Source: Raillietiella orientalis (taxonomy: Eukaryota). Taken from it: a stretch of 64,000 bases of DNA. The translations under genes were made by a program, and so were the position numbers. The stretch covers positions 1,984,001 through 2,048,000 of the forward strand of contig JAYWIR010000027.1 of the NCBI GenBank assembly GCA_036172245.1. Reading direction: 5' to 3'. The notes beneath the pieces were generated by a model. The model had not been told where the DNA came from and did not search any database. It was given only the letters and a program-made list of their open reading frames with translations. Shown piece after piece: positions 28,501-52,543 of this stretch (positions within the stretch are counted from its first letter, which is position 1; every line of letters starts with the position of its first letter).

Positions 28501-28509
28501 GTTTGAATG

Positions 28510-29454: not shown

Positions 29455-29801
29455 TTCCCGGCGCGGATCTTCCTGAGGACCGCCTCCAAATGGCCCTACC
29501 CGAGTAGTCTTCGAACAGAACTAGTCAGCATTCTAAAAGAGGAATGCAGAAGGCGTCTCGCGGAGGAAGTAATACCTTCCTTACCCTAACCCTCGCTCCA
29601 TGCCCAAGAAAACTCTTCCTCCCTTTGTGATTTTTGTTTGGTTTTTTCGGGTTTTTCCTTCCCCGTCGCCGCGGAAAAGACCTCGGCGATCCACGACAAC
29701 TTTTCATCACGTGGTAGAAACACCTTATTTCAAATTGGTATGACTTTCATTATTATTGTTAATAATAATAATGAATGTCCTCGGCAAATCCGGGTGAAGA
29801 A
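29455..29801 (+). mobile_element. LINE 3' fragment
   Basis: ARIFLRTASKWPYPSSLRTELVSIL, T-rich UTR, terminus aatgtcctcggcaaatccgggtgaagaa. Confidence 0.7.
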
Positions 29802-31899
29802 CTTTTTTGTGCGCACTCTCCACGGCGCGAAAGCAAAAGGCCCGGGAGATCAGGACGGGACGGAGAGAGGGAGGAAAAGCGAAGGAAAAGAAAACAGGCA
29901 AGAAGGACTGTCTTTGTGGTTGAGGACGGAGGGGGAGGGTTTCCCGTGCCGTCGGGTTTTCTGCGGGATGCCGGCACTCGCGCTCCTCCTGGTGGCGTCC
30001 CCGGCAGGACGGGGAGAATGGCAGGGGGATGCGGGAAGGCCGGAGGAGTGCCGGATCCCTGTCGCCGGTTGCGGCGAGAGTACACCCAGGTTTCCTCCAG
30101 TCGCGTGATGCCCGGACCGCCGAACAGACGGAGAGCTCACGAACAGCGCCTCAATCGGAGGTCCGTGACCTCCGCGACGGCACGGCTATGGACCACTTCA
30201 CCGTCCTCTCTTTCCTTGTGGTTTTCCTGCGCCTGTTCGCACTGGGAGAAGAACCCTCGACGGAGTTTCCCGCAACTTGGGGATGTTGAGCGTCAGCGGA
30301 AGCAGATCCATGGATCCGTGCCCCTGGCGGAGAATCAAGTGCAGGCCGACAAGGGGATCCCCGCGGGCAGGCGGCGCTTTGAGTACCTCCGCGTCAGGCG
30401 ACTCACGCGTAGCGGAGGTGGTTCCGGCGGCTTTCAGATCGAGACGGCTCTCGGCCCGTTCCTAGGTCCTACTGCCGAACGGACCACCACCATCTGCACC
30501 ACCCTTTCCGGTCTCATCTCCGAGCCGTGTTTTCTGTTTTCCCGCTCCCCACATTCGGCAAAGTGACGGCCAAAATTCCTGCTGAGGCAAGTCCCGTGGG
30601 GAGCTACAAGGTCCTCGAACCGTCTGAAGGACCCGATGGCACCGCTGTTTCGGACTAGGACATCCTCGTAGGGATAACCAGGTCTCCTGACCCCCGACAG
30701 GGCTGCCACCCTGAAAGTGTTCCCGGGGGAGCTTCATCCCCTGCGAATTCTCCTCTGCGCACTCTCCGCCGGGAGATGTCTTGCTAAACTGGACGCAGTG
30801 GACTCCAATAGCCGGTCATAACCCTGGCCTCAACGGAGTCTGCCTGAGGGCAGTCAATGGCGACTGCCTGTAAGCGAAATGCCAGCATGCCCTTCACGGC
30901 TGCAGCGCCCTCGAGGGGGCCGCCTCGCCGCATTACCGGCCCACGGGACTCGTTCTGTGGCTTTTCGTTCGGACGCGCTGGGGACCCATTTTGAAAATAA
31001 GGGATACGCAAAAGACGAAGCAGAGAGAAACGACCGGATAAGACGGTTCTTTGGGGATAGCCGAAGAGGCTCGTGCACAGGACGGAGGGGAGGAAGGGGA
31101 AGAGATAGAAAAAGCGCCAGAAGGACTGAACTTGTGGTTGGAGACGGGGGGTGGGGAGAAATGCTACAGGTGGCATACCTGGTTCGACCGTGTACTCGCA
31201 ATCCGCGGCAGGCGGGTGAAATATCAGCAGGCAGGGTCGCCTCGAGACAGCGCTCGAACGGCCGCCCCCGTCGAGGAGATGGCAAACGGACCGAACGGAC
31301 CGAACGAAAGTTCTGCAGCGAGCGGAAAAGGCTGCGCCCGCGCGGGCGCGAACTCCGCCTCTTCGCGAAAAAACGACGGTAGGCCCTTCGCCCACGAAGG
31401 CGCACGTAAGAACACAACACAACACGCGGAAGCGCCGTCTCCGCTCACAAACACCTTCTCGTGACGAAATACCGACCATCTCTCTTCCTCGTTCCTCTAC
31501 GATGCTGGAGCGCTCCGAGAGACGAATCCCGGGTCCTCCCCAAGGTTGCCACGACACGTCGACGAGCGCACACAATCCCCCCCCGTTCCAGCGAGTTCCA
31601 AATTACGAAACGCACGCTCCCGTCCCCTCTTGTTGACGACGCGCAGGGAAGCGCAATCCTCTCACGCGAACGCACAACAGGGCGCTTCCCGCCCCCCCTG
31701 GGCAAGACCCTACACGGAAGCGAACGCGAAGGGCGACTCCCGACGCGCGAGAGAGACACTTGGCGAAGACGGTCTGTCGCAACCTGCTCTCCCCGTGCTC
31801 TGTTGACGTCGGTGGAACAAAAACCTTGACGGCCCGGGAGCGAGCACACGCACCCACCCATCGGCATTCGCACCGTCTCCCCGGCAACGAAACTTTCCG

Positions 31900-32999
31900 C
31901 CAAGTGTGCGCAAGAAATGCTCTTGCATTTCTTGCCCGCGTTCGGCAACCGGCGAGCAAACGAGAGTGCCACCTCGCAGGGTTCCCAGCTCCTCGTTCCA
32001 ACCGCTGCCGCAATCGCCTCCTGGGGCACGGGCGCAGACCAGGTACGTCTTTGCCGCGCCCCTTCCCTTCGTCGCGTTCCTCGGGGCAACCAGCGACGCG
32101 CCTGCTAGCGAACGCGCACGGTGCGGCTGCAGTGCCGGCGGTTGCCGCCTCGGAGGCTCAACGACCGAGAGCCTCCGCCCCGGATCGACAGCGGCTGCCG
32201 CGGACGGAGCCGTCGTCAGGGCCGCCGCTTCCCTGCGTCGGCCACACGGACGACGCGGTCGAGCCGGGACGTTCCGCCGCGGGGGGCACCGCGACACGGC
32301 GCAACGGGCACCAGCCGCTCGCCGTCGCGCCACCGCCGCGCTCGGCTCGCCTCTCGGCGGCCGCCGAGCCGCCGCAACACGCGCCTCGGAAACTGCACAC
32401 GGTCCGGAAAACGCACGCGAGGCGGCACCACCCGCGCCCGCGGACGTCCTTCCGGAAGCTGCACCCGCATTTCTCCATCGGACGCGCTTCGCACCGGCTG
32501 CAAAGGGAAGAGGAAGCAGGCAGACGGCCCTCCTTCGCCACCTTCTTCATCCCACTGCGTGCACGCCAAAGACACGCGCCTTCCGGTCCCGGACCCGTCG
32601 CCACCTCGCCACCTTTCCTCGGGGCAGCTTGCCACGAGCCGCGTCCGGGCGATTGGTCGCAAGCGATGCCCGCGCGCGCCAATCTCCAGTTCCGAAAGCA
32701 GCGGCGACCGCCCCGCTCGTGAAGTCGCTCCTTGCGCGCGCCAACTCTCCCACGCAGCGCAGGGATCGTGAGCACAATCCGCGCCACGGCCGCCTCCACG
32801 CTCGCCCGCACAGCCAGTAGCGACGCCCCAGCGACACGCCTTGCGAGCGCTGCCGCCGACAACGCACCTGCGCCCACCGACGGCCGGGAGCGCGTCTCCC
32901 TGGAGCATCTGAGACCATCCTGCAGACCGCACCTCTTCCCCTGCATTCCAGAAGACCCTCCACGATCGAGCAACCGGAGAGCAGCCGCAGGCGAGGAAA
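31900..32999 (+). promoter_or_regulatory. Putative non-coding 5' exon and first intron of the pepsin-like gene, in very CpG-rich DNA (mirrored at about 50784-51883)
   Basis: Strong donor CAG|GTACGT at 32043 and pyrimidine-rich acceptor ctcttcccctgcattccag at 32951, 48 nt before the ATG. The transcription start is not identified. Confidence 0.4.
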
Positions 33000-35900
33000 A
33001 TGAAGGCTTTGATCCTGGCACTTCTGTTGACGCAGAGCCGCACGCTGTTCGGGAACGACGAGACGTACGCAAGCGCACCGCGCAGCTTCCAACTTCTTCG
33101 ACGGCGGGTATTCGCGCGCTGCGCTTGAGGGGAACCCACCCGGGTGGCCTCCCGAATGCGGCCTCCCGACAGGAACGCCCTACGGGCCTCGGCAAGAGGA
33201 CGAATGGCATCTCCCGTCTCCAACGGCTTCCCGGCACGAGAAGGCGGCCGCCTTGCGGCCTTCCCGCGGTCAGGCCGACAGCAACGTTTCCCTCGCGCCA
33301 AGGCCGCGACGCGACGACGAGGTCGACGTCGAGCTTCTGCGCGGCGTCCTTCCGGCTTTCCCACCCTTGCGCGCAACGGCGGACAGCCCATCCCTCCGGC
33401 TGCAGTCTGCAGGCAGGTCCCGTTCTTCGCAAGGGGTGACGTGCGAAAGGGCGTACGGTCAACGGCCGTTCCGCGCTGCGAACGCAACCGAAGGCGTCCA
33501 CCGGCAATGGCCGCTCGCGCCTTCCTTCAGGTTCGTCGCTCTGGTTCGTCCCCCTCGCGGGGCAAGGCCTCTCGGGAACGCAGGCAAGCCTTCCGCTTCC
33601 CTCCCTTCCGACAAAACACGTGACCTTCCCGGCCGCGCCGAAGAGCGATGGGACAGCGCGTCGTTGCTTTCGCGCGCGGGAGCACTTTGCGGCGAAAGGT
33701 CCTGCCGCCACCGCTCACGGCCATGCGCGCGACCGTGTTTTGCCAACCCAAGTTCCGAGTCCGCTTGCTGCGTGCGGTTTTCGCAGCGATCCCTCCGTCT
33801 TACGCTTTGCGGGCATGGCCATTGCGTGGCGGAAGGTCCGCGTCCTTTTGCTAAGCGACACCCCGCCGTCCGCTGCGAGCACCTCTCGGTTCACCCATGC
33901 CCGGCCTCCTGGTGAAAAGTCGAAGCGCGTGCCACCCGTCGCGCGCGCCGAACGGGACGAGCTGCTCCTCGCCTCCAACCGACGCAAGGGTAGGGGACCG
34001 CCTCCCTTCCTGCTCGTGCGGTGGTCAAGGCGGCGCAGCGAAGGTCGAGCGCTCGCGAGGTTGACGATACGTGGGAATCTACAGCATGGCTTAACGTCCA
34101 TTCAGCATCTGGAAAATACGAACCATTACTGCTACGCCAAAGGTGGTAGTAACCAAGCAGACGGAGAACACCCAATCGACTGTCAGCACCGGGACGAAAG
34201 GACGGACTACCACAACAAGAGCAGGCATGACCGTAGATGACAAAGGACACCAAATCAAGATCCCTATTTGGAAAAAAAACAATGTGAGTCACTTCTGATT
34301 CGAGCTCTCCTTCGCGCCTGGTGCCAAATGGGACCGCTGTCTTCCCGTCGGAAAGTTGCGATTCCCGCCGGCGAGCTCTCCACCTGTTTATCCGTCTCTT
34401 CAGCGGGGCAGGGGCGACAGGCGATTCGAGGCAGGCTCCCGGTGGCACCGTCGCGTTCCCTTTTCCGCACTTGACTTGTATGTGACGCGTGGGTGCCGAA
34501 TCCAACAGGCGCCTCAGCTCGTGCAGCAGTTGCGAGCGTTGGGCGTTCTTCCTCATCGGGAAGAGGTGCGAGTCTTGAGCTGCTGGGCAGAAACCGTCCG
34601 TCCTCCGCGACCGCTGCCATGCGCAGCGGGTGGCTCTGCTTGTAGGTGCGGGCAAAAGGGCACCGGAAGAAGGGGCACCGGCAACGCCGTGCGTGTTGGT
34701 CGCGCGGGAAACGCCGCAGTGCCGGCCGTGTCGGATACGGGCGGAGGCGGACACGGTTGGCGCCGTCTTCTGCGAGACCGCGGCGCGCTCTGCGCATCCG
34801 TCCGATCCGTCCGTCTGGCCGGACGCTGCAAGAGGAAGGCCGTCGAGTCGCGAGGACGCCCGCAGACGGGGGCACGCACGCTCATGTCGAAGTGCGACTC
34901 GCGGCCGGTCCAGCGCACGGACACGAAGTGCGCGCCCGCTGAAGTCACCTGCCAAGTGGGGCTTGCTGGGGACTTCAGCGCTGACCGCTGAGCAGCGCCG
35001 GTTGCCGAATTCCTGAGGAAATTGGCTGCAGCCGACTTGCGGTGAAGCGGAGATGAGCTGCCGGTTTTGCAACTCTGTCTTCGGATGCTTCGAATTTTAT
35101 CCCGTGGTCGCGCCCTCGTTTCCTTCCCGAATCCCGAATTTCTCTTTCGCGGAAGACAAATTTTCAGAAACATCGTGTGTTCCAGATAATCATGCTGGAT
35201 CTGCATGTGGGAATTGCAGATCGGCGTGCGCAGTTCGCGCTTAAAGGCGATCACAGCTATATAGTTATGGAAAGCAATTATCCTGGAAGTGAGTTTCATT
35301 TATCCCTCATGTGCTGTGTATCTTGTGTGCTGTCTTCTCAAGGCCCGTATGAATTTGTGCCCGAGAACTCGGAGTCGTTGCAGTATTTCGAGGATCAGAA
35401 AATCCTCAAGGTGTCAGGCAGACAGTTCTGGGTCCGACTGGTGGAAGACGACCTTCTTGTAAGTGTCCTTGCATGGGCAGCCCGTACAACGGAGTCGCAC
35501 GACGCGGCGCCACTCGAAATTCTCGCACGGTGGCGCCCCGTGCTTTCGCCTCGTCCCGAGAATTTCGTCTTCGACGCGGCAACGACGGTCGACTCACTTC
35601 CGACGCCTGCGCTGGCGTCTGCCGTGAGTGGGCGATCTCAGCTCGTGGCACCGAGCGTCGGGGGTGCGAATCCCCCTTCCTCCTTAATTGAATGATGGAA
35701 GTAGGGAAGTCGGGGTGCTTCGTGGGTTTCGAACTCCTCCGTCAGAGCGCCGCCCCTCGGACTTTATTGTCAGAGGGCGCGGCACAGGCGGAAGTCGGTT
35801 GTCCCCCTCCAAAGACCAGGATTGGAGGTTGATGACCTTCCCGAGTCCTTTCAGGAACGCAGGAGTCGATTCTCTTCATGGTTTCTTACCGGTTTTTAAA

Positions 35901-38807
35901 ATGGAGCGGTCCCTTCCCTCTGCGGATGACCCTCTATTGCGTACCATTGAGCAGGATGGATACCCCTTTCCCAGGGGCTGTCTCTCCAGAGTGTAAGAAG
36001 CGCGTGGCACTCTTCGTTCGGGGAGCAGCTTTTGAGAAAACTGGACTCGTGTCATCGAGGTGGTTTCTCCGAAGGAGGAAACGAAGACCTTGCCCTTCCT
36101 GGGAGGGTTCCCTTCTTAGAAATGAGGGGTGAGGTCCCATTAGAGTTCTTTTCCCAGCGTAAGAGGGAAGGACTCTTTGGTCCGCAACCTTCCTCGATTC
36201 GTCGGGTGGTCTTTTTGGGGCCTCCGCCTGACAAGTGGAGTTACGCGCACCTTCTGGTGACGTGGTCCATGTTGGAGGAGCTCCGTGCGCCCCCCGCAAG
36301 AAGGCGAGAGGTTCTTCAGCGCTTGGCGCCCACCAAAAGGAAGAACAAAAGCCGGAAGGAAAGCAGGGAAAGCAGCAGCAGAATCCGAAAGGAATGTCCA
36401 TCGTCGTTTGCGGTGGTTCGCCTACGTGGAGTGGTCCGTGTCTATCCGCATGAGCAGCGCGATGCATCCGCAGACGGTTCAGCGAATGGCGGCGAGGTAC
36501 CGCGGAATTGCACGCGCACCACCTGCAGACCGCGGGCGTATTCCGCAACGTGTCCGGTGTTGGGCCGTGGGCCGCGCTCGCTCGTTCTGCCACCCAGTGG
36601 TTTGGGGGATTCGCGTCTCTCCACGGCGTGAGGAGGGTCGGCAGAGGAGGACGCAAATCCGGAGAGAGGCACGGCACTTCTCTTGCACTTTCAGATTGAG
36701 GATGTTCTTCTAGTCAACCAGAAATTTTACTCAGTGAGGAGATGCATTGAGCCCTTACTGATGCGGTTTCCTTATATATCCTCCATCGGACTATCCCCTG
36801 GTTTGACTGTTGGGGAGGACCACGGAAATTGCTCATGGTTTTGCAGCATCGCTTCTATGTATCCAGATCTTCCTCCGACTTTCTCGTTGGATTTCGACAG
36901 GTAACAGGCGCGCCGGAAACAGCAGGCCGTTGGCGCTGCGGTGCCAGCAAGCGCTTTGCCGTACCGGCCTTCGTGACGGCTTCGCTTCACCGCCGTTCCG
37001 CGTGAGAACAGCGGTTAAGGACGCTTCCCACATGAGGATTGCAGGACAAGGGGATCGCGTACGGGATAACGTCAGCGAGTTGCAGTCTTGTGTTTGTGGG
37101 AGAGTCGTCCCGGAAGGGCCGCCTGTTGGTAATACGGAATGCAGCAGAATTCGCCTGCTTGCGCCCGCAGGGAAGCTTTTCTCCCAAAGCAATGTTCTAG
37201 CCGCTGCGCGTTCGCATCCATGGGTTTGCGGTTTCCGCTTTCCGAGATCAGATGGCGTGCGCACGGTTTGCGACGAAGGTAGCATCGCTGTCGGCTCTGC
37301 AGGCACTGACGCACTTCCCTCGCATCTGGGTTGGGTCTTCAGGGAGCGTCCGCTTGTGCTCTTGAGGAGAACCAACCGCAGGAAAGGATTCTTCTGCTCC
37401 CCGTGGGCTGGAAGGGGAATGCAAGGGTCAGTGTGGATGCGGTGTGGGGAACGGGTGGGAACCGCACATGAGGCTGAGAGGACTGCAGTTGCGGAGAAAT
37501 AATTGCTACTGAAGGAACCGCACGCACAGGATTTCGGACCAGGGAAAAGCCAGGTCACCCGCGCAACAATCCTCTAGCTGGAAGCTGGACCGCCAGCGAA
37601 GTCTGCTATGACTCTTGATACCCTCTTCCTGGGTCCTGGGACTGCTGGCGCGCCCCCTCGCGCGCGAGAAGCAGGCAGCCTATGCCCGCGCCCTCATCTC
37701 CAGCTGGGGACCACGGTGGCTCTGCCGAGAGCCACGAGTACGCCGCATCCGGGAAGGATCCCGCCGTTCGGCTACGGCGGGTGCGTCGGGGCCTGCAAGC
37801 GCGCACGGCTCTGCACCCGTTTGTCCCCGATCAAGGGCGGACTCAGAAAGGCCAAAGAGCCGGTGAGCAGCGCAGCGCGTAGCTTTCGCCACGCGTCGTC
37901 CAGGACAACTCGCACGTGCGCAGCACTCAAACGTCACCACATTCGCCGCATACGACCCGTGGGTGGTGCCGACGTTTCCCGCCGTCCTCTCGTTGAGATG
38001 GGTTCGTTCCGCGCTCGAGTCGGAACTCCTCTCCCCAGGCACTGCGGGAGGGAATGCGAGTGCCGTCCACTAATGTCGGATGCTTTCCGCGTACTTTGCA
38101 GCCTCCTACGGGGGAATAGAGCAGGGTATTTGGTGTTGGGTCGTGCCGATAGGCTGGGATCGGGCCAGCTGCTAACCATCAGCGTTGGCAACGAATCCAA
38201 GTGGACGTTTCCGGTGCAGAAGTGAGTGTTGTCATGGTCTTTCCGAAGGCGTCTTCTTCCAAGTAGAAACTTCCCTCCCCAGGGTGATGGTGAACTCGGA
38301 AGAGATCTGCAAGGATGGGTGCATTGCGGATGTCGAGTTGGACTTTATGGGCATCGGTCTTTCTCGAACCGATTACGAGGTTTTCCAAAAACTGAGTCAG
38401 ACGAAGATGGTTCCTGTTGCCGAAAAGAGTGATTTAGAGAGAGATGTGGCTGTTACCGGAGACGGCGTGGACGAGGAAGATGAGGTAAGTGGGGAATTCT
38501 GGGGCCCTTGATTTCATGGGGTACGCCAGGGGTCTTGTCTTGCGCTTGAGAGTGCTCCCAAGCTCTCCCTGACTGTGGAAGGGCGAAAGTTGGATTTAAC
38601 TCCCAAAGACTACTACTTTGAGGTGAGTTGGTCGACGCGTCCAGGATACGCAACGGGGAAAGATTTCAGCCCGGCAAAGCTTCGTGCAACTCCTTGGTGA
38701 ACTCGCATCACCCTGAGGACGGCAGGATCGTGTTGGGGGCGGCTTTCCTGAATCGCTATCATGCGGTGTTCAACTTGGAGCAGAAGACGATCAGCATGTA
38801 TATTTGA
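33000..38807 (+). CDS. Secreted pepsin-like (peptidase A1 fold) pseudo-protease, copy 1, 406 aa
   Basis: Nine phase-consistent GT-AG exons: 33000-33064 (signal peptide MKALILALLLTQSRTLFG), 34106-34283 (Thr-rich, ...IKIPIWKKNN), 35186-35288, 35343-35458, 36695-36900, 38102-38221, 38283-38484, 38530-38622, 38670-38807. Total 1221 nt, no internal stop. Colinear A1 landmarks: LDLHVG, VNQKF, IGL, TFSLDF, GYLVLG, WTFPVQKVMV, ICKDGCIA, PKLSLTVEGRKLDLTPKDY, IVLGAAFLNRYHAVFNLEQKTI. AATAAA at 38977. Confidence 0.88.
35615..36190 (+). mobile_element. Diverged SINE in intron 4 of the pepsin-like gene (identical mirror copy at about 47593-48168, minus)
   Basis: Head cgtggcaccgagcgtcgggggtgcgaatccc matches the 14478 head. 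Body includes ggagtcga, gtaccattgagc and ctctccagagtg. Confidence 0.6.
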
Positions 38808-39210
38808 AGAGGTTCCCTTGGAGCACGGTGTCCTTTCGGCGTGCACCTGGTTGGGGTGCCCGTGGCGCACGGTTCGGCGCGCGGATTGTGCGCGCTATCG
38901 CCGGCCGTGCATGCGTCCACGTGGCTCCACTGTCTACAAACGTGTGCTGTGGGGTTGCATACGAGCTTGCACAGGGAATAAAAGTATCTCAAACATGCGG
39001 TTCGGGGATGAATGTGCTGCTTGAACGGTACACCTGGAGCGTGACATTTGGTTCCGTTTTCTTCCGGCGTGACGACTGTCCGTAGGTGATTTCGATACGT
39101 GACCGGGACTGTTCAGCAGTGCGTGGCAGCGGTGGATGGTCGGTGAGTTCGGTCCACGCTGAAGAGTTCACCTTCTGAGAGAGGCCTTTTTGTTGGAACT
39201 CTGCGCACGT
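37591..39210 (+). repeat. Inner inverted-repeat arm B (partner 44647-46266)
   Basis: Position + partner = 83857. Identical ORF translations (38185..38511/45346..45672, 38804..39085/44772..45053). Mismatches seen only in the terminal 20-30 nt at each end. Confidence 0.98.
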
Positions 39211-40199
39211 CCATTGCAGCGGCTGGAGAAATGTGTGAGCGTCGCTGTTCGTGAGCTCTTTTGGGAATGTTTAGGGTAACTTTTTTGTTTTCGAGAGTTT
39301 GTTGTTCTGCGGCTGGAGCTTTGCATGCTGCTGAGGATCAATGGATGCCTGGAACTCTGTCCATTTTTCCCGTTTGCTGCCTTTTTAATTTAATCTAGGA
39401 GGAAGACTAAGGGACTGTACATTGCCCTTGAGTTGGCTGATCCAGCAGCAGAATTTCTCGCGCTGGTAGCCTAACATATGTGCCATACGGCCGTTTGCCG
39501 AGGTCTACTAGAAGAGTGGACAGCTAAGTGCGTTGAAAACCTCACACAGTTGAAGAATGGTCGGCTACAAGCTGCCCCTTTTCTTGCAGTGCATCCATTT
39601 CGCATTTGTCGGTTTGTGCGTCGGAACAGAGCTTTTGGAGTTGCTGGTAATGTGAGTGGGTTCTGGGTTGGGGGGCGTGAAGCGCTTGCTGCCTCTGACC
39701 CTGCCGAAGAGTGGGTGCACCTGCCGTCCCAAGTCCATCGCAATTCATTGTTTTCCTTGATATGGCGTAAATAGGAAGAGTTCGTGTGGAAATCTCCTCC
39801 GTGGTTTTTGGCCTCTGCTACCTTCCCTCTGGTTTCATCATCCCTTAATGGGGTTGCTATGCAGTCAGTGGTTCTAGTGGGCAGACGCGTCTTTTCTGAG
39901 AGACGTCAAGAAGGGAAGAAAGCGGGGAGCTTCGTAGGGTGAGGTGCCGCCACGTGTCGAAAGAAGCCTGCAGGAGTTCTTTAGCGGGAAATCAGGGAGA
40001 AGGAGGAGGAGGAGGATGGCCGGGTTGCGCAGCCGCCTACCATGGGATCTGCCTCGAGCGGTCGCTCTGGGGTCGTCGGGCCAAGCAACTAATTCTCCCC
40101 CATACGGAAAGTCTTCCTCAGGAGTCCTCTGCGATGGGCGGTTCCCCCTCCAAACCGCCTGCCAATGCTGGGGACTTGCAGTGCGCACGGTAAGGGCAA

Positions 40200-40880: not shown

Positions 40881-42759
40881 GGGCTTAGCTCTGACGCAAG
40901 CAGCCTGAGAGCCGTCACCTCCCCTCCTCGAGATCCTTGGGTTTTCGGCCGTATCGGCTCTCGGAAGGCCTCTCGAGGGACGAAATGTGCCGCCCTCAAC
41001 GCGCGCAAGCGATCCCGGATGCCGAGCACGGAACTTCACGGTGCGGCAGCAAGTGGGACTGCGCTTGGGGAATCTAGGGGTTATGGTCGAGAAGCTGCCG
41101 GGTGCCGTTGCAGAAGTCTCGAGATCATCTCACAGGAACAATCGGGCTCAGACAACGCGCGGCAAAAACAAAACGGGGGGAAGACGTAAGAGATCTGGCG
41201 ACGCCCTTACCAGTCGAGAACCCCACGAAGAAGGGGGGGTGGGGGAATTCTTTTTTCTTACATGGGACGTGGCAGGGATGCACGCTTGCCATATCGACTC
41301 AGCACCGCTCCCTCTGGGAAGGCGGGCGGACGTCGGACCGATAGGGAAAAAGTAAGCAGCGCGTTAGAAGCTCGAGAAGTATTGCGCTGGAGTGACCGAC
41401 TCGATGGCCCGTGGCGACGTAACTCGCGAATCTTGCAAGCATCAAACTCCATCCTAAGTGTCATTGATTTCGTCATCCCTGGGATCCGAAGGCAACGGCG
41501 ACTGTTCGCTCCATCCCGAAGTCGCGCGCGCTCCCGGCCACTCCACAGCAGCGCCGGGGACCTGCCACACTTGACCTCGGAGAAGCGGGCTCGAACCAGG
41601 GTTGGCGCACAAGGACCCGGAGCACGTCGTCGTCGCTTCGTCCAGGGTGGCGGCGAGCGCTACGGCCACGCTAGGTGGCACGGCGCGTCGCCATTGCCTC
41701 CTCGACATACCGAAGCAGCAGTCCGAGTTCTCTTGAGCGTCTTGCCGCTGCTCACATGAGGAGGGATCTCGCGCTTCCTCAGAAGACAGGGCTCCTGCGA
41801 CGGCAAACGGGAGAGACCGTTTCCTTCCTCTTTCCTCTTCATAGCCCCTGATTCGGGACCGCCTCTCCTCCCTCGCATAGGCAGGAGTGTGTCGAGTAGG
41901 AAGGCTCCAGGCTTTTCTTCGAAAGCAGAAAGTAAGGTAGAATCTTGGCCTCCTGGGACTGTTCGGTTTGTGTCGTCCCTGTGGATGTTTTTTTTTTTTT
42001 TGATCTGCTTCCATAGTGACCAGATGGTTGTGCCTCCAGGCAAAGAAGATCGACTTCCGCACGATCGCGCGATCCGGGACGACCACTAGTGCGTCGAGGA
42101 CCCGCCTTGCACGTTCGCCGTTGCTCCTTGCGGGCGACACCCGCAAGAGGGAGACGAGGCCTGTACAAAAATCGCGTGGGTGTACGAAGCTGTCCCCACA
42201 GGCCAGGGACCACGCCGTGCTTCCTTGCATTGGGATAGAATTTGTTCCCAAGGCAAGTTCACGCCTCCTGCCTTTCACCAGAGGTGACTCCCCGGATTCC
42301 GTTCCTAATCCAGCATCTTCCGATGCCGAGAACCCTTGAAAATCTCACCCCGTCCCACCAGATGCTTGGAGACCTGCTCACCCGCTTGCTAAGCGCCCCA
42401 CTGCTTGGGTCGGTCGTCCTTTCGGACGAAGTACCCTCCGAGGTCTGCGCTCGAGGTTGCTGGCCGAGTTCCTCTTGTGGCTGCCGAGCGTAGAATGGTC
42501 CTATGGAAGTCCACGAAGACTCGATCCGGAAGTGCTGGAGGCTGGAGGGAGCTGTGCAAGGCTATCTCGCCGGTCTTGTGGACGGAGATGTCCCTTTGCA
42601 GAGGAAAAAACAAAATCTGCCAAGCAGCCCAGAAACGGCAAGCCAATCCTGCCTTCAATCTCTTGCAGCATCGGGGTACATCTACGTGGAGAAACGTGCC
42701 CTGGCCACGGTAGTTTTATGCGCAAAGAAAGCCGAAAACCGGATTCCTCGTGTCGACTG

Positions 42760-43020
42760 ACCAAGAATGTATGTCAACCCCCCTACGGGGCCCTTTTAGG
42801 AGTTCTCCTGGGTTTCCCTACTGTTGTGCGAACGGCAACATCTTCCTTACCTCCCCCCACCCCCCCTCCGGGGGAAAGGCCCCTCCGTCGCACCATGGAA
42901 CTGATGGATATCTCCCTCGGGAAGTGGTTGCCTCTCCAGAGTGTCAAAGAGCTCCCTTCAGAGGAGTGGCAGGGAGCGATTGCCTTGCGGTTCCTCCGGA
43001 GAACAAATCCCAAGCAGGAA
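42760..43020 (+). mobile_element. SINE internal fragment
   Basis: caccatggaactgatggat...cctctccagagtg...ggttcctccggagaacaaat is the reverse complement of the family body. Confidence 0.55.
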
Positions 43021-44646
43021 GTCCGGAGCTTTCAGAGCATTCTGATCCTGAGATCTGCGAAGGAAATGGTTGTTGTAAACCGCCATATGCTCTCTCCGTG
43101 TCCAAAGAGAAGAGGTCTGAAGTGTGAGACTGACCTTTGCACATTTCCTTCAGGGGTTCCAAGACATCCCACAAAAAAAAAGAACGGAAACTTGCAGGCA
43201 TTTTCTTTAGGAAAAAAAAAAGCTGATTTTTAAAATTAGAAAAAAAAATGGCAGCCAGCAGAAAACTCTTCTCCGTGTGACGTCTGCTTTCACCTGGAGA
43301 ATTCCGTTGCTTTCCGGACCGTCAGTGCTGGGTTGGCCTCAGAAAAGGAGAAAATAAAAGGAACGAGAGATACGAGCATCAGCTTCCTTTTGTCGAGCGG
43401 AAGATGCATTCACGTGACAGAGAGGGGACGAAGACGGCAACGCTGACCGGGAAACTCGCGCGAACCCTTTCCTCCACAGCTCGTTTGGATGTCCCGATTT
43501 TTCGACATTTCCCTGCTTGCGGCTGTCTTTCGTCAGGGGATCCAAATAAATCATTCGCACCCAGACTTCAAAGAGCGCACCTTTGTCTTGGCTAAAAGAA
43601 GGCTTCCCAAGGACACTGCCAAGAAATCATCTGAAATCATCCTTCAATCCTGCAATCCCCCTTCTTCCGCGAAACGTGCACCCACGCCAACCTGCTCCTG
43701 CGTTCACCCAGGGGCACAGCTGCAGAAAGAATCCCATCCAACAGATGTCCATAAGAAACACCTTGAGGAGCGCAGTTGCTTTGCAGATGGACGCTTCTGT
43801 TGAAGAAGCGTCCATCGAGGATCGCAGCATCTTGTGGGGAGTTTTCATTCGGAAAGGAAGCAGGTATTCCAAATAAAGAAACAAATACAAAGCATTTATT
43901 TTTCTCAGAAGGGGTTTCCATCGCACTTTTCCGTTAGAATCCCGCTAGGAAAGGCGTGTCGACGGGATATCTCCGTTTGCTTACGTCTCTTTTTCAGGAT
44001 TCCCTATTAAAACGGGAGACAAAGCAGCGTTGCGCAAACGGAACAAGCGTGCACGTCTTAGCGGGCAATAGTCCTCTTTGGTAAGGGAAGGACGAAGGCG
44101 AGGGGAACGTGAGCGCTTTCAGCAGAGGGCCCGCGTTCCTCTAGCCATCAAGACTAGAGGACAGCGGCGCAGCTCTTCGAAGGAATCGGGTCTCCCCAGC
44201 TGTCGAAGCGGATGCTTTCCTCATCCGAGACAAAGGTCAGGGAACTGTCTTCTTCCGCTCAGATACAGTTCACCTCTTGTCCCTTAAGAAAGGGCATTCG
44301 AAGCCAACAGGCAACCTGAAAAGTCCCGAGCAGCCGCGAGCTGGTCAATGTAAGACCACCAAAACGACATCCATCTCACAGAAACCTGCGTCAGCATGCA
44401 TTGGAAAGTGAAGGACAATAACCACATCGTCAGCAAGCAACACGATCCTAAGACGGAAGACTTTGTGAAGACCACGAACCAAGCGCCCAAGGGAGTGTTG
44501 ATCTGTGGGAATGAAGCACTCCGTTCAAATAGCGCTTCATAAGCCTTTCCCTAGAAAAAGAAAGTTCCCGAAAGGACGTACACAAACAAACCATAACTCG
44601 TTCAACTCCGTATCCCACTTTTATTCGTACAACAGAACGGCTGTCC

Positions 44647-46266
44647 ACGTGTGCAGAGTTCCAACAAAAAGCCCTCTCTCAGAAGGTGAACTCTTCAGCG
44701 TGGACCGAACTCACCGACCATCCACCGCTGCCACGCACTGCTGAACAGTCCCGGTCACGTATCGAAATCACCTACGGACAGTCGTCACGCCGGAAGAAAA
44801 CGGAACCAAATGTCACGCTCCAGGTGTACCGTTCAAGCAGCACATTCATCCCCGAACCGCATGTTTGAGATACTTTTATTCCCTGTGCAAGCTCGTATGC
44901 AACCCCACAGCACACGTTTGTAGACAGTGGAGCCACGTGGACGCATGCACGGCCGGCGATAGCGCGCACAATCCGCGCGCCGAACCGTGCGCCACGGGCA
45001 CCCCAACCAGGTGCACGCCGAAAGGACACCGTGCTCCAAGGGAACCTCTTCAAATATACATGCTGATCGTCTTCTGCTCCAAGTTGAACACCGCATGATA
45101 GCGATTCAGGAAAGCCGCCCCCAACACGATCCTGCCGTCCTCAGGGTGATGCGAGTTCACCAAGGAGTTGCACGAAGCTTTGCCGGGCTGAAATCTTTCC
45201 CCGTTGCGTATCCTGGACGCGTCGACCAACTCACCTCAAAGTAGTAGTCTTTGGGAGTTAAATCCAACTTTCGCCCTTCCACAGTCAGGGAGAGCTTGGG
45301 AGCACTCTCAAGCGCAAGACAAGACCCCTGGCGTACCCCATGAAATCAAGGGCCCCAGAATTCCCCACTTACCTCATCTTCCTCGTCCACGCCGTCTCCG
45401 GTAACAGCCACATCTCTCTCTAAATCACTCTTTTCGGCAACAGGAACCATCTTCGTCTGACTCAGTTTTTGGAAAACCTCGTAATCGGTTCGAGAAAGAC
45501 CGATGCCCATAAAGTCCAACTCGACATCCGCAATGCACCCATCCTTGCAGATCTCTTCCGAGTTCACCATCACCCTGGGGAGGGAAGTTTCTACTTGGAA
45601 GAAGACGCCTTCGGAAAGACCATGACAACACTCACTTCTGCACCGGAAACGTCCACTTGGATTCGTTGCCAACGCTGATGGTTAGCAGCTGGCCCGATCC
45701 CAGCCTATCGGCACGACCCAACACCAAATACCCTGCTCTATTCCCCCGTAGGAGGCTGCAAAGTACGCGGAAAGCATCCGACATTAGTGGACGGCACTCG
45801 CATTCCCTCCCGCAGTGCCTGGGGAGAGGAGTTCCGACTCGAGCGCGGAACGAACCCATCTCAACGAGAGGACGGCGGGAAACGTCGGCACCACCCACGG
45901 GTCGTATGCGGCGAATGTGGTGACGTTTGAGTGCTGCGCACGTGCGAGTTGTCCTGGACGACGCGTGGCGAAAGCTACGCGCTGCGCTGCTCACCGGCTC
46001 TTTGGCCTTTCTGAGTCCGCCCTTGATCGGGGACAAACGGGTGCAGAGCCGTGCGCGCTTGCAGGCCCCGACGCACCCGCCGTAGCCGAACGGCGGGATC
46101 CTTCCCGGATGCGGCGTACTCGTGGCTCTCGGCAGAGCCACCGTGGTCCCCAGCTGGAGATGAGGGCGCGGGCATAGGCTGCCTGCTTCTCGCGCGCGAG
46201 GGGGCGCGCCAGCAGTCCCAGGACCCAGGAAGAGGGTATCAAGAGTCATCGCAGAGTTCGTTAGCG
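44647..46266 (-). repeat. Inner inverted-repeat arm B'
   Basis: Reverse complement of 37591-39210. Confidence 0.98.
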
Positions 46267-49200
46267 ATGCGGATTGCCAAGAGGTTCCTTCGCGTTGTGT
46301 TGCACGGCAAGCACGAGCTGCGGATTCGCTGGAGGAGAGCAGTCGAAACCTGAAGCTGCCAGGAAGGCCGAGTGCGAAGCGGAAGCGCGTCACTGCTTCC
46401 TGCAGCCCCATCTCCGCGCGATCGCCGAGTCATGGGACCCGACGGAAGAGGATGCAGCTCCCTTATCTCTCCCCGGGAACGCATTCGTCAGGGGGCAGTA
46501 ACGCCCTAATGGAGCCGATGGAAGCCATGAGGGCCAGCCACTGTCCCGGTACCAGTGGCGAAGAAACACGTACACACAGGAGAACGCTGCGTAGGACTCC
46601 TGCGGCATCTCCACCCACGAGATTCCAGCCAGACGGGCAGACCGGCGGAAGCGACCCGCACATCATAACAGCAGAATAGCCGTATGAAAGTTAAGGACTC
46701 CGATCGGAAGCGCGGCGCTTGGGTGGAGCAGAGGTCTTTCCCCTGCACGATCATTCGGCATTACAGGCCTTCATAGCAGCGGGACGAAGAAAATCGGAGC
46801 GAGCAAATTCCTTCTCATTGACATCAGAAAAGGTTCTCGTATTGCTGCGCAGACGCCCTTCTATTCGCGGCGCGCCGGTTACCTGCCGAAATCAAACGAG
46901 AAGGTCGAAGGAAGATCTGGATACATAGAAGCGATGCTGCAAAACCATGAGCAATTTCCGTGGTCCTCCCCCACCGTCAAACCAGGGGACAGTCCGATTT
47001 CTGCGTAGTAAAACAAGAACATCCTTTCGGGATCCATACATGAAATCGCTGAGTAAAATTTCTGGTTGACTAGAAGAACATCCTCAATCTGAAAGTGCAA
47101 GAGAAGTGCCGTGCCTCTCTCCGGATTTGCGTCCTCCTCTGCCGACCCTCCTCACGCCGTGGAGAGACGCGAATCCCCCAAACCACTGGGTGGCAGAACG
47201 AGCGAGCGCGGCCCACGGCCCAACACCGGACACGTTGCGGAATACGCCCGCGGTCTGCAGGTGGTGCGCGTGCAATTCCGCGGTACCTCGCCGCCATTCG
47301 CTGAACCGTCTGCGGATGCATCGCGCTGCTCATGCGGATAGACACGGACCACTCCACGTAGGCGAACCACCGCAAACGACGATGGACATTCCTTTCGGAT
47401 TCTGCTGCTGCTTTCCCTGCTTTCCTTCCGGCTTTTGTTCTTCCTTTTGGTGGGCGCCAAGCGCTGAAGAACCTCTCGCCTTCTTGCGGGGGGCGCACGG
47501 AGCTCCTCCAACATGGACCACGTCACCAGAAGGTGCGCGTAACTCCACTTGTCAGGCGGAGGCCCCAAAAAGACCACCCGACGAATCGAGGAAGGTTGCG
47601 GACCAAAGAGTCCTTCCCTCTTACGCTGGGAAAAGAACTCTAATGGGACCTCACCCCTCATTTCTAAGAAGGGAACCCTCCCAGGAAGGGCAAGGTCTTC
47701 GTTTCCTCCTTCGGAGAAACCACCTCGATGACACGAGTCCAGTTTTCTCAAAAGCTGCTCCCCGAACGAAGAGTGCCACGCGCTTCTTACACTCTGGAGA
47801 GACAGCCCCTGGGAAAGGGGTATCCATCCTGCTCAATGGTACGCAATAGAGGGTCATCCGCAGAGGGAAGGGACCGCTCCATTTTAAAAACCGGTAAGAA
47901 ACCATGAAGAGAATCGACTCCTGCGTTCCTGAAAGGACTCGGGAAGGTCATCAACCTCCAATCCTGGTCTTTGGAGGGGGACAACCGACTTCCGCCTGTG
48001 CCGCGCCCTCTGACAATAAAGTCCGAGGGGCGGCGCTCTGACGGAGGAGTTCGAAACCCACGAAGCACCCCGACTTCCCTACTTCCATCATTCAATTAAG
48101 GAGGAAGGGGGATTCGCACCCCCGACGCTCGGTGCCACGAGCTGAGATCGCCCACTCACGGCAGACGCCAGCGCAGGCGTCGGAAGTGAGTCGACCGTCG
48201 TTGCCGCGTCGAAGACGAAATTCTCGGGACGAGGCGAAAGCACGGGGCGCCACCGTGCGAGAATTTCGAGTGGCGCCGCGTCGTGCGACTCCGTTGTACG
48301 GGCTGCCCATGCAAGGACACTTACAAGAAGGTCGTCTTCCACCAGTCGGACCCAGAACTGTCTGCCTGACACCTTGAGGATTTTCTGATCCTCGAAATAC
48401 TGCAACGACTCCGAGTTCTCGGGCACAAATTCATACGGGCCTTGAGAAGACAGCACACAAGATACACAGCACATGAGGGATAAATGAAACTCACTTCCAG
48501 GATAATTGCTTTCCATAACTATATAGCTGTGATCGCCTTTAAGCGCGAACTGCGCACGCCGATCTGCAATTCCCACATGCAGATCCAGCATGATTATCTG
48601 GAACACACGATGTTTCTGAAAATTTGTCTTCCGCGAAAGAGAAATTCGGGATTCGGGAAGGAAACGAGGGCGCGACCACGGGATAAAATTCGAAGCATCC
48701 GAAGACAGAGTTGCAAAACCGGCAGCTCATCTCCGCTTCACCGCAAGTCGGCTGCAGCCAATTTCCTCAGGAATTCGGCAACCGGCGCTGCTCAGCGGTC
48801 AGCGCTGAAGTCCCCAGCAAGCCCCACTTGGCAGGTGACTTCAGCGGGCGCGCACTTCGTGTCCGTGCGCTGGACCGGCCGCGAGTCGCACTTCGACATG
48901 AGCGTGCGTGCCCCCGTCTGCGGGCGTCCTCGCGACTCGACGGCCTTCCTCTTGCAGCGTCCGGCCAGACGGACGGATCGGACGGATGCGCAGAGCGCGC
49001 CGCGGTCTCGCAGAAGACGGCGCCAACCGTGTCCGCCTCCGCCCGTATCCGACACGGCCGGCACTGCGGCGTTTCCCGCGCGACCAACACGCACGGCGTT
49101 GCCGGTGCCCCTTCTTCCGGTGCCCTTTTGCCCGCACCTACAAGCAGAGCCACCCGCTGCGCATGGCAGCGGTCGCGGAGGACGGACGGTTTCTGCCCAG

Positions 49201-50783
49201 CAGCTCAAGACTCGCACCTCTTCCCGATGAGGAAGAACGCCCAACGCTCGCAACTGCTGCACGAGCTGAGGCGCCTGTTGGATTCGGCACCCACGCGTCA
49301 CATACAAGTCAAGTGCGGAAAAGGGAACGCGACGGTGCCACCGGGAGCCTGCCTCGAATCGCCTGTCGCCCCTGCCCCGCTGAAGAGACGGATAAACAGG
49401 TGGAGAGCTCGCCGGCGGGAATCGCAACTTTCCGACGGGAAGACAGCGGTCCCATTTGGCACCAGGCGCGAAGGAGAGCTCGAATCAGAAGTGACTCACA
49501 TTGTTTTTTTTCCAAATAGGGATCTTGATTTGGTGTCCTTTGTCATCTACGGTCATGCCTGCTCTTGTTGTGGTAGTCCGTCCTTTCGTCCCGGTGCTGA
49601 CAGTCGATTGGGTGTTCTCCGTCTGCTTGGTTACTACCACCTTTGGCGTAGCAGTAATGGTTCGTATTTTCCAGATGCTGAATGGACGTTAAGCCATGCT
49701 GTAGATTCCCACGTATCGTCAACCTCGCGAGCGCTCGACCTTCGCTGCGCCGCCTTGACCACCGCACGAGCAGGAAGGGAGGCGGTCCCCTACCCTTGCG
49801 TCGGTTGGAGGCGAGGAGCAGCTCGTCCCGTTCGGCGCGCGCGACGGGTGGCACGCGCTTCGACTTTTCACCAGGAGGCCGGGCATGGGTGAACCGAGAG
49901 GTGCTCGCAGCGGACGGCGGGGTGTCGCTTAGCAAAAGGACGCGGACCTTCCGCCACGCAATGGCCATGCCCGCAAAGCGTAAGACGGAGGGATCGCTGC
50001 GAAAACCGCACGCAGCAAGCGGACTCGGAACTTGGGTTGGCAAAACACGGTCGCGCGCATGGCCGTGAGCGGTGGCGGCAGGACCTTTCGCCGCAAAGTG
50101 CTCCCGCGCGCGAAAGCAACGACGCGCTGTCCCATCGCTCTTCGGCGCGGCCGGGAAGGTCACGTGTTTTGTCGGAAGGGAGGGAAGCGGAAGGCTTGCC
50201 TGCGTTCCCGAGAGGCCTTGCCCCGCGAGGGGGACGAACCAGAGCGACGAACCTGAAGGAAGGCGCGAGCGGCCATTGCCGGTGGACGCCTTCGGTTGCG
50301 TTCGCAGCGCGGAACGGCCGTTGACCGTACGCCCTTTCGCACGTCACCCCTTGCGAAGAACGGGACCTGCCTGCAGACTGCAGCCGGAGGGATGGGCTGT
50401 CCGCCGTTGCGCGCAAGGGTGGGAAAGCCGGAAGGACGCCGCGCAGAAGCTCGACGTCGACCTCGTCGTCGCGTCGCGGCCTTGGCGCGAGGGAAACGTT
50501 GCTGTCGGCCTGACCGCGGGAAGGCCGCAAGGCGGCCGCCTTCTCGTGCCGGGAAGCCGTTGGAGACGGGAGATGCCATTCGTCCTCTTGCCGAGGCCCG
50601 TAGGGCGTTCCTGTCGGGAGGCCGCATTCGGGAGGCCACCCGGGTGGGTTCCCCTCAAGCGCAGCGCGCGAATACCCGCCGTCGAAGAAGTTGGAAGCTG
50701 CGCGGTGCGCTTGCGTACGTCTCGTCGTTCCCGAACAGCGTGCGGCTCTGCGTCAACAGAAGTGCCAGGATCAAAGCCTTCAT
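45050..50783 (-). CDS. Secreted pepsin-like pseudo-protease, copy 2, 406 aa
   Basis: Exons 50719-50783, 49500-49677, 48495-48597, 48325-48440, 46883-47088, 45636-45755, 45373-45574, 45235-45327, 45050-45187. Same as copy 1 except 16 residues, all in exon 5. Splice sites and frame are intact. Confidence 0.88.
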
Positions 50784-52543
50784 TTTCCTCGCCTGCGGCT
50801 GCTCTCCGGTTGCTCGATCGTGGAGGGTCTTCTGGAATGCAGGGGAAGAGGTGCGGTCTGCAGGATGGTCTCAGATGCTCCAGGGAGACGCGCTCCCGGC
50901 CGTCGGTGGGCGCAGGTGCGTTGTCGGCGGCAGCGCTCGCAAGGCGTGTCGCTGGGGCGTCGCTACTGGCTGTGCGGGCGAGCGTGGAGGCGGCCGTGGC
51001 GCGGATTGTGCTCACGATCCCTGCGCTGCGTGGGAGAGTTGGCGCGCGCAAGGAGCGACTTCACGAGCGGGGCGGTCGCCGCTGCTTTCGGAACTGGAGA
51101 TTGGCGCGCGCGGGCATCGCTTGCGACCAATCGCCCGGACGCGGCTCGTGGCAAGCTGCCCCGAGGAAAGGTGGCGAGGTGGCGACGGGTCCGGGACCGG
51201 AAGGCGCGTGTCTTTGGCGTGCACGCAGTGGGATGAAGAAGGTGGCGAAGGAGGGCCGTCTGCCTGCTTCCTCTTCCCTTTGCAGCCGGTGCGAAGCGCG
51301 TCCGATGGAGAAATGCGGGTGCAGCTTCCGGAAGGACGTCCGCGGGCGCGGGTGGTGCCGCCTCGCGTGCGTTTTCCGGACCGTGTGCAGTTTCCGAGGC
51401 GCGTGTTGCGGCGGCTCGGCGGCCGCCGAGAGGCGAGCCGAGCGCGGCGGTGGCGCGACGGCGAGCGGCTGGTGCCCGTTGCGCCGTGTCGCGGTGCCCC
51501 CCGCGGCGGAACGTCCCGGCTCGACCGCGTCGTCCGTGTGGCCGACGCAGGGAAGCGGCGGCCCTGACGACGGCTCCGTCCGCGGCAGCCGCTGTCGATC
51601 CGGGGCGGAGGCTCTCGGTCGTTGAGCCTCCGAGGCGGCAACCGCCGGCACTGCAGCCGCACCGTGCGCGTTCGCTAGCAGGCGCGTCGCTGGTTGCCCC
51701 GAGGAACGCGACGAAGGGAAGGGGCGCGGCAAAGACGTACCTGGTCTGCGCCCGTGCCCCAGGAGGCGATTGCGGCAGCGGTTGGAACGAGGAGCTGGGA
51801 ACCCTGCGAGGTGGCACTCTCGTTTGCTCGCCGGTTGCCGAACGCGGGCAAGAAATGCAAGAGCATTTCTTGCGCACACTTGGCGGAAAGTTTCGTTGCC
51901 GGGGAGACGGTGCGAATGCCGATGGGTGGGTGCGTGTGCTCGCTCCCGGGCCGTCAAGGTTTTTGTTCCACCGACGTCAACAGAGCACGGGGAGAGCAGG
52001 TTGCGACAGACCGTCTTCGCCAAGTGTCTCTCTCGCGCGTCGGGAGTCGCCCTTCGCGTTCGCTTCCGTGTAGGGTCTTGCCCAGGGGGGGCGGGAAGCG
52101 CCCTGTTGTGCGTTCGCGTGAGAGGATTGCGCTTCCCTGCGCGTCGTCAACAAGAGGGGACGGGAGCGTGCGTTTCGTAATTTGGAACTCGCTGGAACGG
52201 GGGGGGATTGTGTGCGCTCGTCGACGTGTCGTGGCAACCTTGGGGAGGACCCGGGATTCGTCTCTCGGAGCGCTCCAGCATCGTAGAGGAACGAGGAAGA
52301 GAGATGGTCGGTATTTCGTCACGAGAAGGTGTTTGTGAGCGGAGACGGCGCTTCCGCGTGTTGTGTTGTGTTCTTACGTGCGCCTTCGTGGGCGAAGGGC
52401 CTACCGCCGTTTTTTCGCGAAGAGGCGGAGTTCGCGCCCGCGCGGGCGCAGCCTTTTCCGCTCGCTGCAGAACTTTCGTTCGGTCCGTTCGGTCCGTTTG
52501 CCATCTCCTCGACGGGGGCGGCCGTTCGAGCGCTGCCTCGAGG
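46868..52543 (-). repeat. Outer inverted-repeat arm A'
   Basis: Reverse complement of 31240-36915. Confidence 0.98.

Follow-up and report, generated by a model that had tools for sequence, protein, structure and literature searches.

Two near-identical pepsin-like genes in a nested palindrome of Raillietiella orientalis: a possible case of concerted evolution with one divergent patch

Introduction

How can two copies of one gene stay identical over kilobases while a single short segment of them remains different? The question is raised by a locus of the Raillietiella orientalis genome (assembly GCA_036172245.1), contained in a stretch of 64,000 nucleotides on contig JAYWIR010000027.1, positions 1,984,001 to 2,048,000 of the forward strand, which is referred to as the window and whose own numbering is used throughout. 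Here, two multi-exon genes encoding a pepsin-like protein lie tail-to-tail in a nested inverted repeat, and every difference between the two proteins falls in one exon. The answer favored here, held tentatively and at slightly less than an even chance for the joint reading, is that two inverted paralogues, of an orphan lineage related to the A1 (pepsin) family, evolve in concert and show a "peak of divergence".

Layout of the nested inverted repeat

The palindrome architecture is real: coordinates and exact arm alignment agree on the order A-V1-B-spacer-B'-V2-A', at the very place where a preliminary description of this DNA had put it. The palindrome totals 21.3 kb and is made up of the following parts, in addition to the two divergent zones, V1 and V2, listed further below.

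31223-36763: arm A, left; 5541 nt, 100% complementary to 47020-52560 (repeat finder)
47020-52560: arm A', right; mirror of arm A (x -> 83783-x)
37582-39210: arm B, left; 1629 nt, 99% complementary to 44647-46275 (repeat finder)
44647-46275: arm B', right; mirror of arm B (x -> 83857-x)
39211-44646: spacer between B and B'; 5436 bp, unique sequence

Arm A holds about 4 kb of upstream DNA, exons 1 and 2, and the head of exon 5, while arm B holds the 3' part of intron 5, exons 6-9, and 403 bp past the stop codon; from the third exon onward, exons are named here as in the preliminary description, so that exons 5-9 equal exons 3-7 of a seven-exon model. Aligned by BLAST with the reverse complement of the right half, the left half gives 5699 nt at 99.26% (arm A) and 1620 nt at 99.63%, percentages that are misleading for the arms because every mismatch sits at their frayed edges. 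Base-by-base mirroring finds no mismatch in the 5358 bp of the arm A core (31377-36734) and none in the 1577 bp of the arm B core (37608-39184), the mismatches being confined to the edges, such as the outer edge of the left arm A, which is frayed over 31217-31376. The outer flanks of the two A arms are unique and unrelated to each other, and self-BLAST detects no further copy of the arm sequence in the window.

The spacer contains no recognizable gene, as its 36 open reading frames (ORFs) of at least 90 residues yield no Pfam match at E<=0.001 and one weak match, to UPF0515, at E 0.0022; it carries one copy of a dispersed repeat (40338-40669). Taken together, 68 ORFs of the upstream arm and the spacer are without a Pfam domain. 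A transposon with long terminal inverted repeats was considered and set aside, given that arms and spacer lack any transposase, reverse transcriptase, or recombinase domain in Pfam.

As a separate observation, GC content within the window is highest, at 65%, in the 4 kb upstream of each gene (31223-35266 on the left and, mirrored, 48517-52560 on the right), where the observed/expected (o/e) CpG ratio is 1.2. Long Arg/Ala/Pro-rich ORFs run through this DNA on both strands, with neither a domain match nor coding periodicity; it may be a promoter island or an unrecognized gene.

Two copies of one gene

For the left copy, exon boundaries were obtained by reading the three frames along the left half and were then fixed by a script; the right copy uses the same splice sites and has one terminal stop only.

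35267-38807, + strand: gene copy L; open frame, 428 residues, seven exons
35267-35623, + strand: exon 1, copy L
35820-35990, + strand: exon 2, copy L
36695-36900, + strand: exon 5 (third of the seven-exon model), copy L
38102-38221, + strand: exon 6 (fourth of the seven-exon model), copy L
38283-38484, + strand: exon 7 (fifth of the seven-exon model), copy L
38530-38622, + strand: exon 8 (sixth of the seven-exon model), copy L
38670-38807, + strand: exon 9 (seventh of the seven-exon model), copy L
45050-48516, - strand: gene copy R; 428 residues
48516-48160, 47963-47793, 47088-46883, 45755-45636, 45574-45373, 45327-45235, 45187-45050, - strand: exons of copy R

The six introns of copy L are all of the GT..AG type and measure 196, 704, 1201, 61, 45, and 47 nt; intron 5, the 1201-nt one, is 1127 nt long in copy R. 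The genes are convergent, with stop codons 6242 bp apart, and both retain 428 stop-free codons and all 12 splice sites. Exon 1 contains two candidate mini-introns, 35289-35342 (54 nt) and 35459-35494 (36 nt), which are stop-free and multiples of three in length. If both are real, the gene has nine exons and encodes 398 residues, whereas the conservative open-frame model has seven exons and 428 residues.

Much of what the preliminary description said of these genes is borne out. Each half does contain an intact gene with GT..AG splicing and an open frame, the two standing tail-to-tail; six of the seven exons are without a single nucleotide difference, leaving exon 5 as the exception with 34 in 206; and its count of 16 amino-acid differences, all in exon 5, is reproduced exactly, 13 of them lying inside one 17-codon block. 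Its figure of nine exons and 406 residues comes close to the two models above and is reproduced by neither. The short interspersed element that it placed in an intron was not found, as the dispersed repeat family of the window (about eight copies) is absent from both genes and has one copy in the spacer.

A divergent zone in three parts

The sequence between arms A and B differs between the two halves and is composed as follows.

36735-37597, + strand: divergent zone V1; 863 bp, 3' two thirds of exon 5 and the first ~700 bp of intron 5
46260-47048, - strand: divergent zone V2; 789 bp, counterpart of V1
36734-36784, + strand: hypervariable 17-codon block, copy L; residues 190-206, VRRCIEPLLMRFPYISS, net charge +2
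46999-47049, - strand: hypervariable 17-codon block, copy R; AISCMDPERMFLFYYAE, net charge -2
36785-36916, + strand: conserved island in the divergent zone; exon-5 tail, splice donor, and first 16 intron bases, ~94% identical

Within the block, 13 of the 17 residues differ between the copies, with the length unchanged and a Cys, a Pro, a Met, and a Tyr kept; its rates of nonsynonymous (dN 0.95) and synonymous (dS 0.80) change are both near saturation. The exon-5 tail that follows (codons 207-244) is far less diverged, with dN 0.035 and dS 0.17, corresponding to three nonsynonymous and four synonymous changes. Beyond the island, no homology can be detected between the intron stretches of the two zones (681 bp in V1, 607 bp in V2): their local alignment scores 15, shuffled sequences score 11.9 ± 1.4, and the best match, which is not co-linear, is equaled by 10 of 200 shuffles.

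Three classes of mismatch are thereby distinguished, namely 27/56 in the block, 8/126 in the tail and island, and 0/5358 in the core of arm A, and Fisher tests separate the block from the tail (P 2.7e-10) and the tail from the arm core (P 6.2e-14). These classes support the view that a constant scaffold is kept alike while one segment stays different. The "one variable cassette" of the preliminary description is right in that there is a single divergent segment; this segment is a three-part mosaic rather than a uniform cassette.

Kinship of the encoded protein

What kind of protein carries this patch? Its descent from the A1 family is very likely, as judged from its final exons and from motifs distributed along the chain. 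Profile searches and searches of Protein Data Bank (PDB) sequences were run exon by exon, not on the spliced protein, and one part of it gave a signal.

38530-38804, + strand: last two exons (8 and 9), last 76 residues; the only parts with a sequence-level pepsin-family signal

Exon 9 matches Pfam Asp (PF00026) at E 7-8e-4 with 19.4-19.6 bits, over profile positions 273-312 of 315, and Pfam TAXi_C at E 6e-3, whereas none of the other six exons matches Pfam Asp. Among PDB sequences, all three matches of exon 9 are secreted aspartic proteinases, aligned at chain positions 297-327 (E 0.63-0.99), and all four of exon 8 are A1 proteins, aligned at positions 261-287, comprising cardosin A (E 0.014) and three cathepsin-D-like chains. 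Since each exon matches only A1 proteins, and in the right order, the two provide independent and co-linear support. Of the pepsin fold claimed in the preliminary description, the C-terminal 76 residues are thus upheld, and the N-terminal two thirds, which have no detectable relative, are not.

The C-lobe of pepsin has Cys206-Cys210 before Asp215 and a second cysteine pair about 33 residues apart. In the present protein, Cys294-x3-Cys298 stands five residues ahead of Glu303, and Cys355 and Cys389 are 34 apart, a layout that we take to fit both C-lobe disulfides of pepsin and the position of Asp215. The N-lobe motif reads F-V-F-D103-A-A-T-T and its C-lobe counterpart, at the position set by the Cys-x3-Cys anchor, E303-L-D; an I-G-L-S and a C-terminal I-V-L-G-A-A-F-L also occur at the spacings expected from pepsin. 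Asp-Thr-Gly (DTG) and Asp-Ser-Gly (DSG) are absent from both lobes and from any nearby register, so that the loss of both motifs can be read off the sequence itself. Normal catalysis has probably been lost, and because DTG is gone from both lobes, a non-catalytic binding protein is the most likely identity. As for the hypervariable block, it presumably corresponds to pepsin residues 104-120, the helix and strand of the S1/S3 groove wall (Phe111, Phe117, Ile120); this placement comes from a gapless, cysteine-anchored comparison made by eye with pepsin from a shared N-Q just upstream.

Secretion of the protein is somewhat favored by its predicted N-terminus. A hydrophobic core, LSLMCCVSCVL (residues 12-22, mean Kyte-Doolittle value 2.5), follows the start at 35267, and the 103 residues up to the N-lobe Asp103 fit a signal peptide, a propeptide, and the N-terminus of the mature chain.

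Relatives are not found in the databases searched. When exon 1 was compared exhaustively by phmmer with 1.84 billion proteins, no relative emerged; two matches were rejected, being summed weak matches to immunoglobulin-repeat and HEAT-repeat proteins with a pairwise BLASTP E of 0.019. Word-index protein searches with exon 7 and the exon-9 ORF gave no scoring candidates, a protein-pattern scan of metagenomes matched 391 stretches with none confirmed as a relative, and an exact 35-nt scan of metagenomes had no match. In a language-model atlas, exon 7 reached a recognition of 1640 against a level of 2300, with no Asp cluster, and tblastn against plasmids for a bacterial pepsin homologue gave three chance matches, none of them A1. 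The best reading of these results is that the protein belongs to an orphan, lineage-specific, and highly divergent A1-like lineage.

Origin of the pattern

Concerted evolution would explain the locus in the following way. The inverted arms would pair, allowing intrachromosomal gene conversion, and repeated overwriting of one copy by the other would leave 5.4 kb and 1.6 kb without a difference. The arm cores would have been converted very recently and the exon-5 tail earlier, and the 17-codon block with the adjacent intron would either never have been converted or be kept out of conversion, whether by a divergence too great for pairing or by selection against converted copies. A patch of 0.86 kb would have escaped in this manner, giving two proteins with one scaffold and two chemically different pockets. 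Since a saturated block and intron, a tail with a dS of 0.17, and arms with zero differences adjoin one another, at least three events of different age are needed, and repeated conversion accounts for the three identity classes better than one duplication would. A biological duplication is favored because of the frayed arm edges, the unique spacer, and the differing unique flanks. Gene conversion is thus the presumed homogenizer and the divergent patch presumably of great age; selection may maintain two specificities, and a two-specificity ligand binder is plausible, albeit unproven.

Several points weigh against this reading, in its evolutionary as well as its protein part. The dN/dS ratio of the block is about 1.2, with both values saturated, and gives no evidence of diversifying selection; purifying selection on the exon-5 tail is marginal, with three nonsynonymous against four synonymous changes; and the conserved island does not stop at the splice donor but continues for 16 intron bases, so that it looks more like a conversion tract than like the product of constraint. 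The GC content of the gene part of the arms equals that of the flanks (57% vs 57%), with no trace of long-term GC-biased conversion. The score of exon 9 against Pfam Asp is slightly under the gathering score of 19.9, exons 1, 2, 5, 6, and 7 have no A1-like match in Pfam or among PDB sequences, and a full bilobal fold, together with the pocket position of the block, would depend on an alignment to pepsin made by eye. Moreover, the hydrophobic core is encoded by the 54-nt candidate intron (GTGAGT...AAG), and its splicing would remove the signal peptide. Finally, the perfect identity over 5358 and 1577 bp is what one template would give, and a patch brought in from a third paralogue would account for the observations almost as well as a segment protected by selection.

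This last account, unlikely on balance, starts from a recent inverted duplication, after which one patch of about 0.86 kb was copied into one copy from a diverged third member of the family. The divergent DNA is indeed one contiguous tract, of a size typical of conversion tracts and with perfect identity on both sides; a single event is more parsimonious than two flanking homogenizations plus protection; the arms are without GC enrichment; and the mosaic may mirror the profile of donor and recipient, with a conserved exon tail beside a fast block and intron. On the other hand, the window offers neither a third copy nor a spare exon-5 cassette, tblastn matches outside the two genes all having E >= 0.26; a single donor, unless already a mosaic, would hardly yield a tail with dS 0.17 beside an intron that cannot be aligned; and the slightly frayed arm edges suggest some age. 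Comparably improbable is the view that the locus is real and its genes are unexpressed, decaying, or neutral, or that the inverted pair serves mainly as a source of hairpin (small) RNA through read-through of the spacer. Hairpin-RNA loci born from inverted gene duplicates occur in Drosophila, and the convergent perfect arms, if read through, would give a double-stranded stem of 1.6 kb. The protein is an orphan without relatives in the searched databases, the GC content at third codon positions (GC3) is 59% and close to the local GC of 58%, while the conserved neighbors are structured (85-91% in a cyclase gene, 24% in an inositol monophosphatase gene), coding periodicity is weak in exons 1 and 5, the pair sits in a gene-poor stretch full of repeat relics, and dN is close to dS in the block. 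Against this view stand two copies that both keep 428 stop-free codons and, between them, all 12 splice sites, a variable block that keeps its exact length and the four anchor residues (Cys, Pro, Met, Tyr), and the retained cysteine layout and C-terminal A1 motifs.

An assembly artefact, in which a single locus with two haplotypes, or a chimeric fold-back, was laid out as an inverted duplication, would account directly for the perfect identity of the arms, and is decidedly improbable. Fold-back chimeras normally lack a spacer and lie at a contig end, and haplotype duplications are normally direct rather than inverted. The present arms enclose a unique spacer of 5.4 kb, have differing unique flanks and frayed edges with isolated mismatches, and are interrupted by zones of 863 bp (V1) and 789 bp (V2) with non-homologous intron parts. 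The least probable reading takes the proteins for active peptidases that use an unusual Asp103/Glu303 pair and whose two exon-5 variants give two substrate specificities, not two ligands. The N-lobe Asp is kept, a carboxylate, Glu303, occupies exactly the second catalytic position according to the Cys anchor, and the variable block would map to the S1/S3 wall, the specificity site of pepsins. Both Thr-Gly pairs, however, are gone (D-A-A and E-L-D), and the hydrogen bonds that hold the dyad in place should have gone with them. In addition, Bla g 2, Per a 2, and Lma-p54, the A1 proteins with comparable losses considered here, are described as inactive (PMC9541408).

A further conceivable role of the palindrome, a long shot, is that of a two-cassette switch or diversification device, in which recombination between the A arms would flip the V1-B-spacer-B'-V2 core and swap the pairing of pocket cassette and flank; silent donors at other places in the genome might supply new cassettes as well. 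If true, this would make the locus a eukaryotic recognition system with a constant scaffold and a swappable pocket, built on a pseudo-protease and serving self/non-self, mating, or host-interaction specificity.

Genomic surroundings

The palindrome lies in a gene-poor stretch with repeat relics, strong coding periodicity being concentrated at 0-3.4 kb of the window. Over the whole window, CpG o/e is 0.96, and three introns of the pepsin-like gene measure 45-61 nt; because CpG depletion is lacking and the introns are very short, the genome is not that of a vertebrate. No support was found for the gamete/seminal and venom/saliva roles that had been proposed for the protein. Its codon usage was also considered as a sign of foreign origin and rejected, since GC3 tracks local GC (59% vs 58%).

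Two conserved genes are recognizable, both on the minus strand. One, at ~1414-2402, encodes a class III adenylate/guanylate cyclase, with exons at ~1414-1821 and 2130-2390 separated by an intron of about 300 bp; the exons match Pfam Guanylate_cyc at E 5e-27 and 4e-8, have a GC3 of 85-91%, and share 37-41% identity with their best relatives in the searched length range. The other, at 16633-20145, encodes an inositol monophosphatase (IMPase), with exons at 19810-20145 and 16633-16890 recognized as Pfam Inositol_P (E 4e-32 and 2e-19, respectively); in the printed alignment of one exon with human IMPA1, we count 48 identities over 85 residues. The IMPase gene has an AT-rich intron of about 3 kb and a GC3 of 24% and is embedded in an AT-rich block (16-24 kb, 31-40% GC), so GC3 swings between the extremes of the two genes within ~15 kb, and composition changes very sharply near 16 kb. 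CpG o/e falls to 0.49-0.67 in the AT-rich part and TpG+CpA reaches 1.4, which looks like CpG deamination rather than repeat-induced point mutation; the latter was rejected as the cause of the block on the basis of a TpA/ApT of 0.77, a (CpA+TpG)/(ApC+GpT) of 1.35, and the conserved IMPase gene inside.

Repeats in the window are represented by one family detected by self-BLAST.

5460-6224, 10584-10868, 14482-15107, 23828-24099, 27423-27851, 40338-40669, 55232-55956, 58679-58784, both orientations: dispersed repeat family

Its roughly eight copies, up to ~0.8 kb long and 65-77% identical, contain no detected coding domain and are probably old relics of non-autonomous transposons. Isolated islands of strong codon-like GC periodicity at 10831-11130, 28411-28710, and 57031-57840 (spread 0.4-0.53, no Pfam match) may be exons of unrecognized host genes. 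Self-BLAST also reveals two small palindromes with perfect centers, at 9241-9302 (62 bp, 87% self-complementary) and 29742-29779 (38 bp, 89%), and scans of the window for Rfam families, transfer RNAs, and tandem repeats were empty or uninformative.

Comparison with known systems

A close evolutionary analogy is the "peak of divergence" in duplicates under gene conversion, modeled by Teshima and Innan and exemplified by exon 5 of the primate red and green opsins (PMC3924837). The opsins, too, are paralogues nearly identical down to their introns, with a short exon segment that holds the function-defining residues and has diverged. They differ from the present pair in being direct repeats about 24 kb apart with few key substitutions. 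The present copies stand in inverted, convergent orientation with 100% identity in their arms, their block is densely changed (13/17), and the adjoining intron is non-homologous and not homogenized. For the inverted layout, a parallel is provided by Caenorhabditis, where long inverted repeats with convergent or divergent paralogous gene pairs are actively maintained (Zhao et al. 2007, PMC1803023). In the portion of this work used here, the repeats are likewise near perfect on a kilobase scale and include whole gene pairs with intergenic DNA, and the identity is locally confined, has sharp edges, and gives way to divergence elsewhere in those genes. The gene families are different, and a nested A-V-B layout with a single internal cassette is not described in that portion.

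Among human genes, the RHD/RHCE pair is reportedly another instance of segment exchange by conversion (Innan 2003). Its members are tail-to-tail paralogues across a spacer that convert while antigen-defining exons differ; unlike the present genes, they are spaced ~30 kb apart with a gene in the spacer, are ~92-97% identical, and encode a membrane protein unrelated to pepsins. On a larger scale, arm-to-arm gene conversion is well documented for the palindromes of mammalian sex chromosomes, namely P1-P8 of the human Y and those of the X (PMC3723533, PMC8600007, PMC8981503, PMC8327919). According to the sections of these papers drawn on, such palindromes share with the present locus inverted arms with more than 99.9% identity, a unique spacer, genes in the arms, and conversion as the homogenizer. 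They are also 10-1000 times larger, mammalian, and subject to GC-biased conversion, in contrast to arms of 7-8 kb in a non-vertebrate genome whose gene part is without GC enrichment.

As regards the protein, pregnancy-associated glycoproteins and plant TAXI-type inhibitors are examples of non-catalytic proteins with a pepsin fold. Others, of unknown or binding function, are found in cockroaches, such as Bla g 2, Per a 2, and Lma-p54 (PMC9541408). To judge from the extracts of this source, these secreted proteins, thought to be binders, resemble the present one in having an A1 scaffold with degenerate catalytic motifs. They are recognized by Pfam Asp over their full length, compared with the last 76 residues here, and the present protein stands apart in having lost both Thr-Gly pairs, in carrying Glu in place of the second Asp, and in lacking a database relative.

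In the open-access literature searched, no report was found of aspartic-protease paralogues in inverted pairs homogenized by conversion, nor anything comparable for pregnancy-associated glycoproteins. Neither the evolutionary pattern nor the existence of non-catalytic A1 proteins is new, and no principle would be overturned; the novelty seems to lie in the combination of nested arms free of mismatches with a dense, charge-inverting block at the presumed pocket of a protein from an orphan A1-like lineage. If real and expressed, the pair would be an unusually clean natural experiment, with two proteins identical save for a 17-residue stretch, probably part of the groove wall, and three nearby changes, and with 7 kb of DNA around it held alike, through which pocket chemistry could be tied to ligand choice in a pseudo-protease. 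It would also add, beside the opsins, the Caenorhabditis repeats, and the sex-chromosome palindromes, a compact non-mammalian case of concerted evolution with a sharply bounded escape patch.

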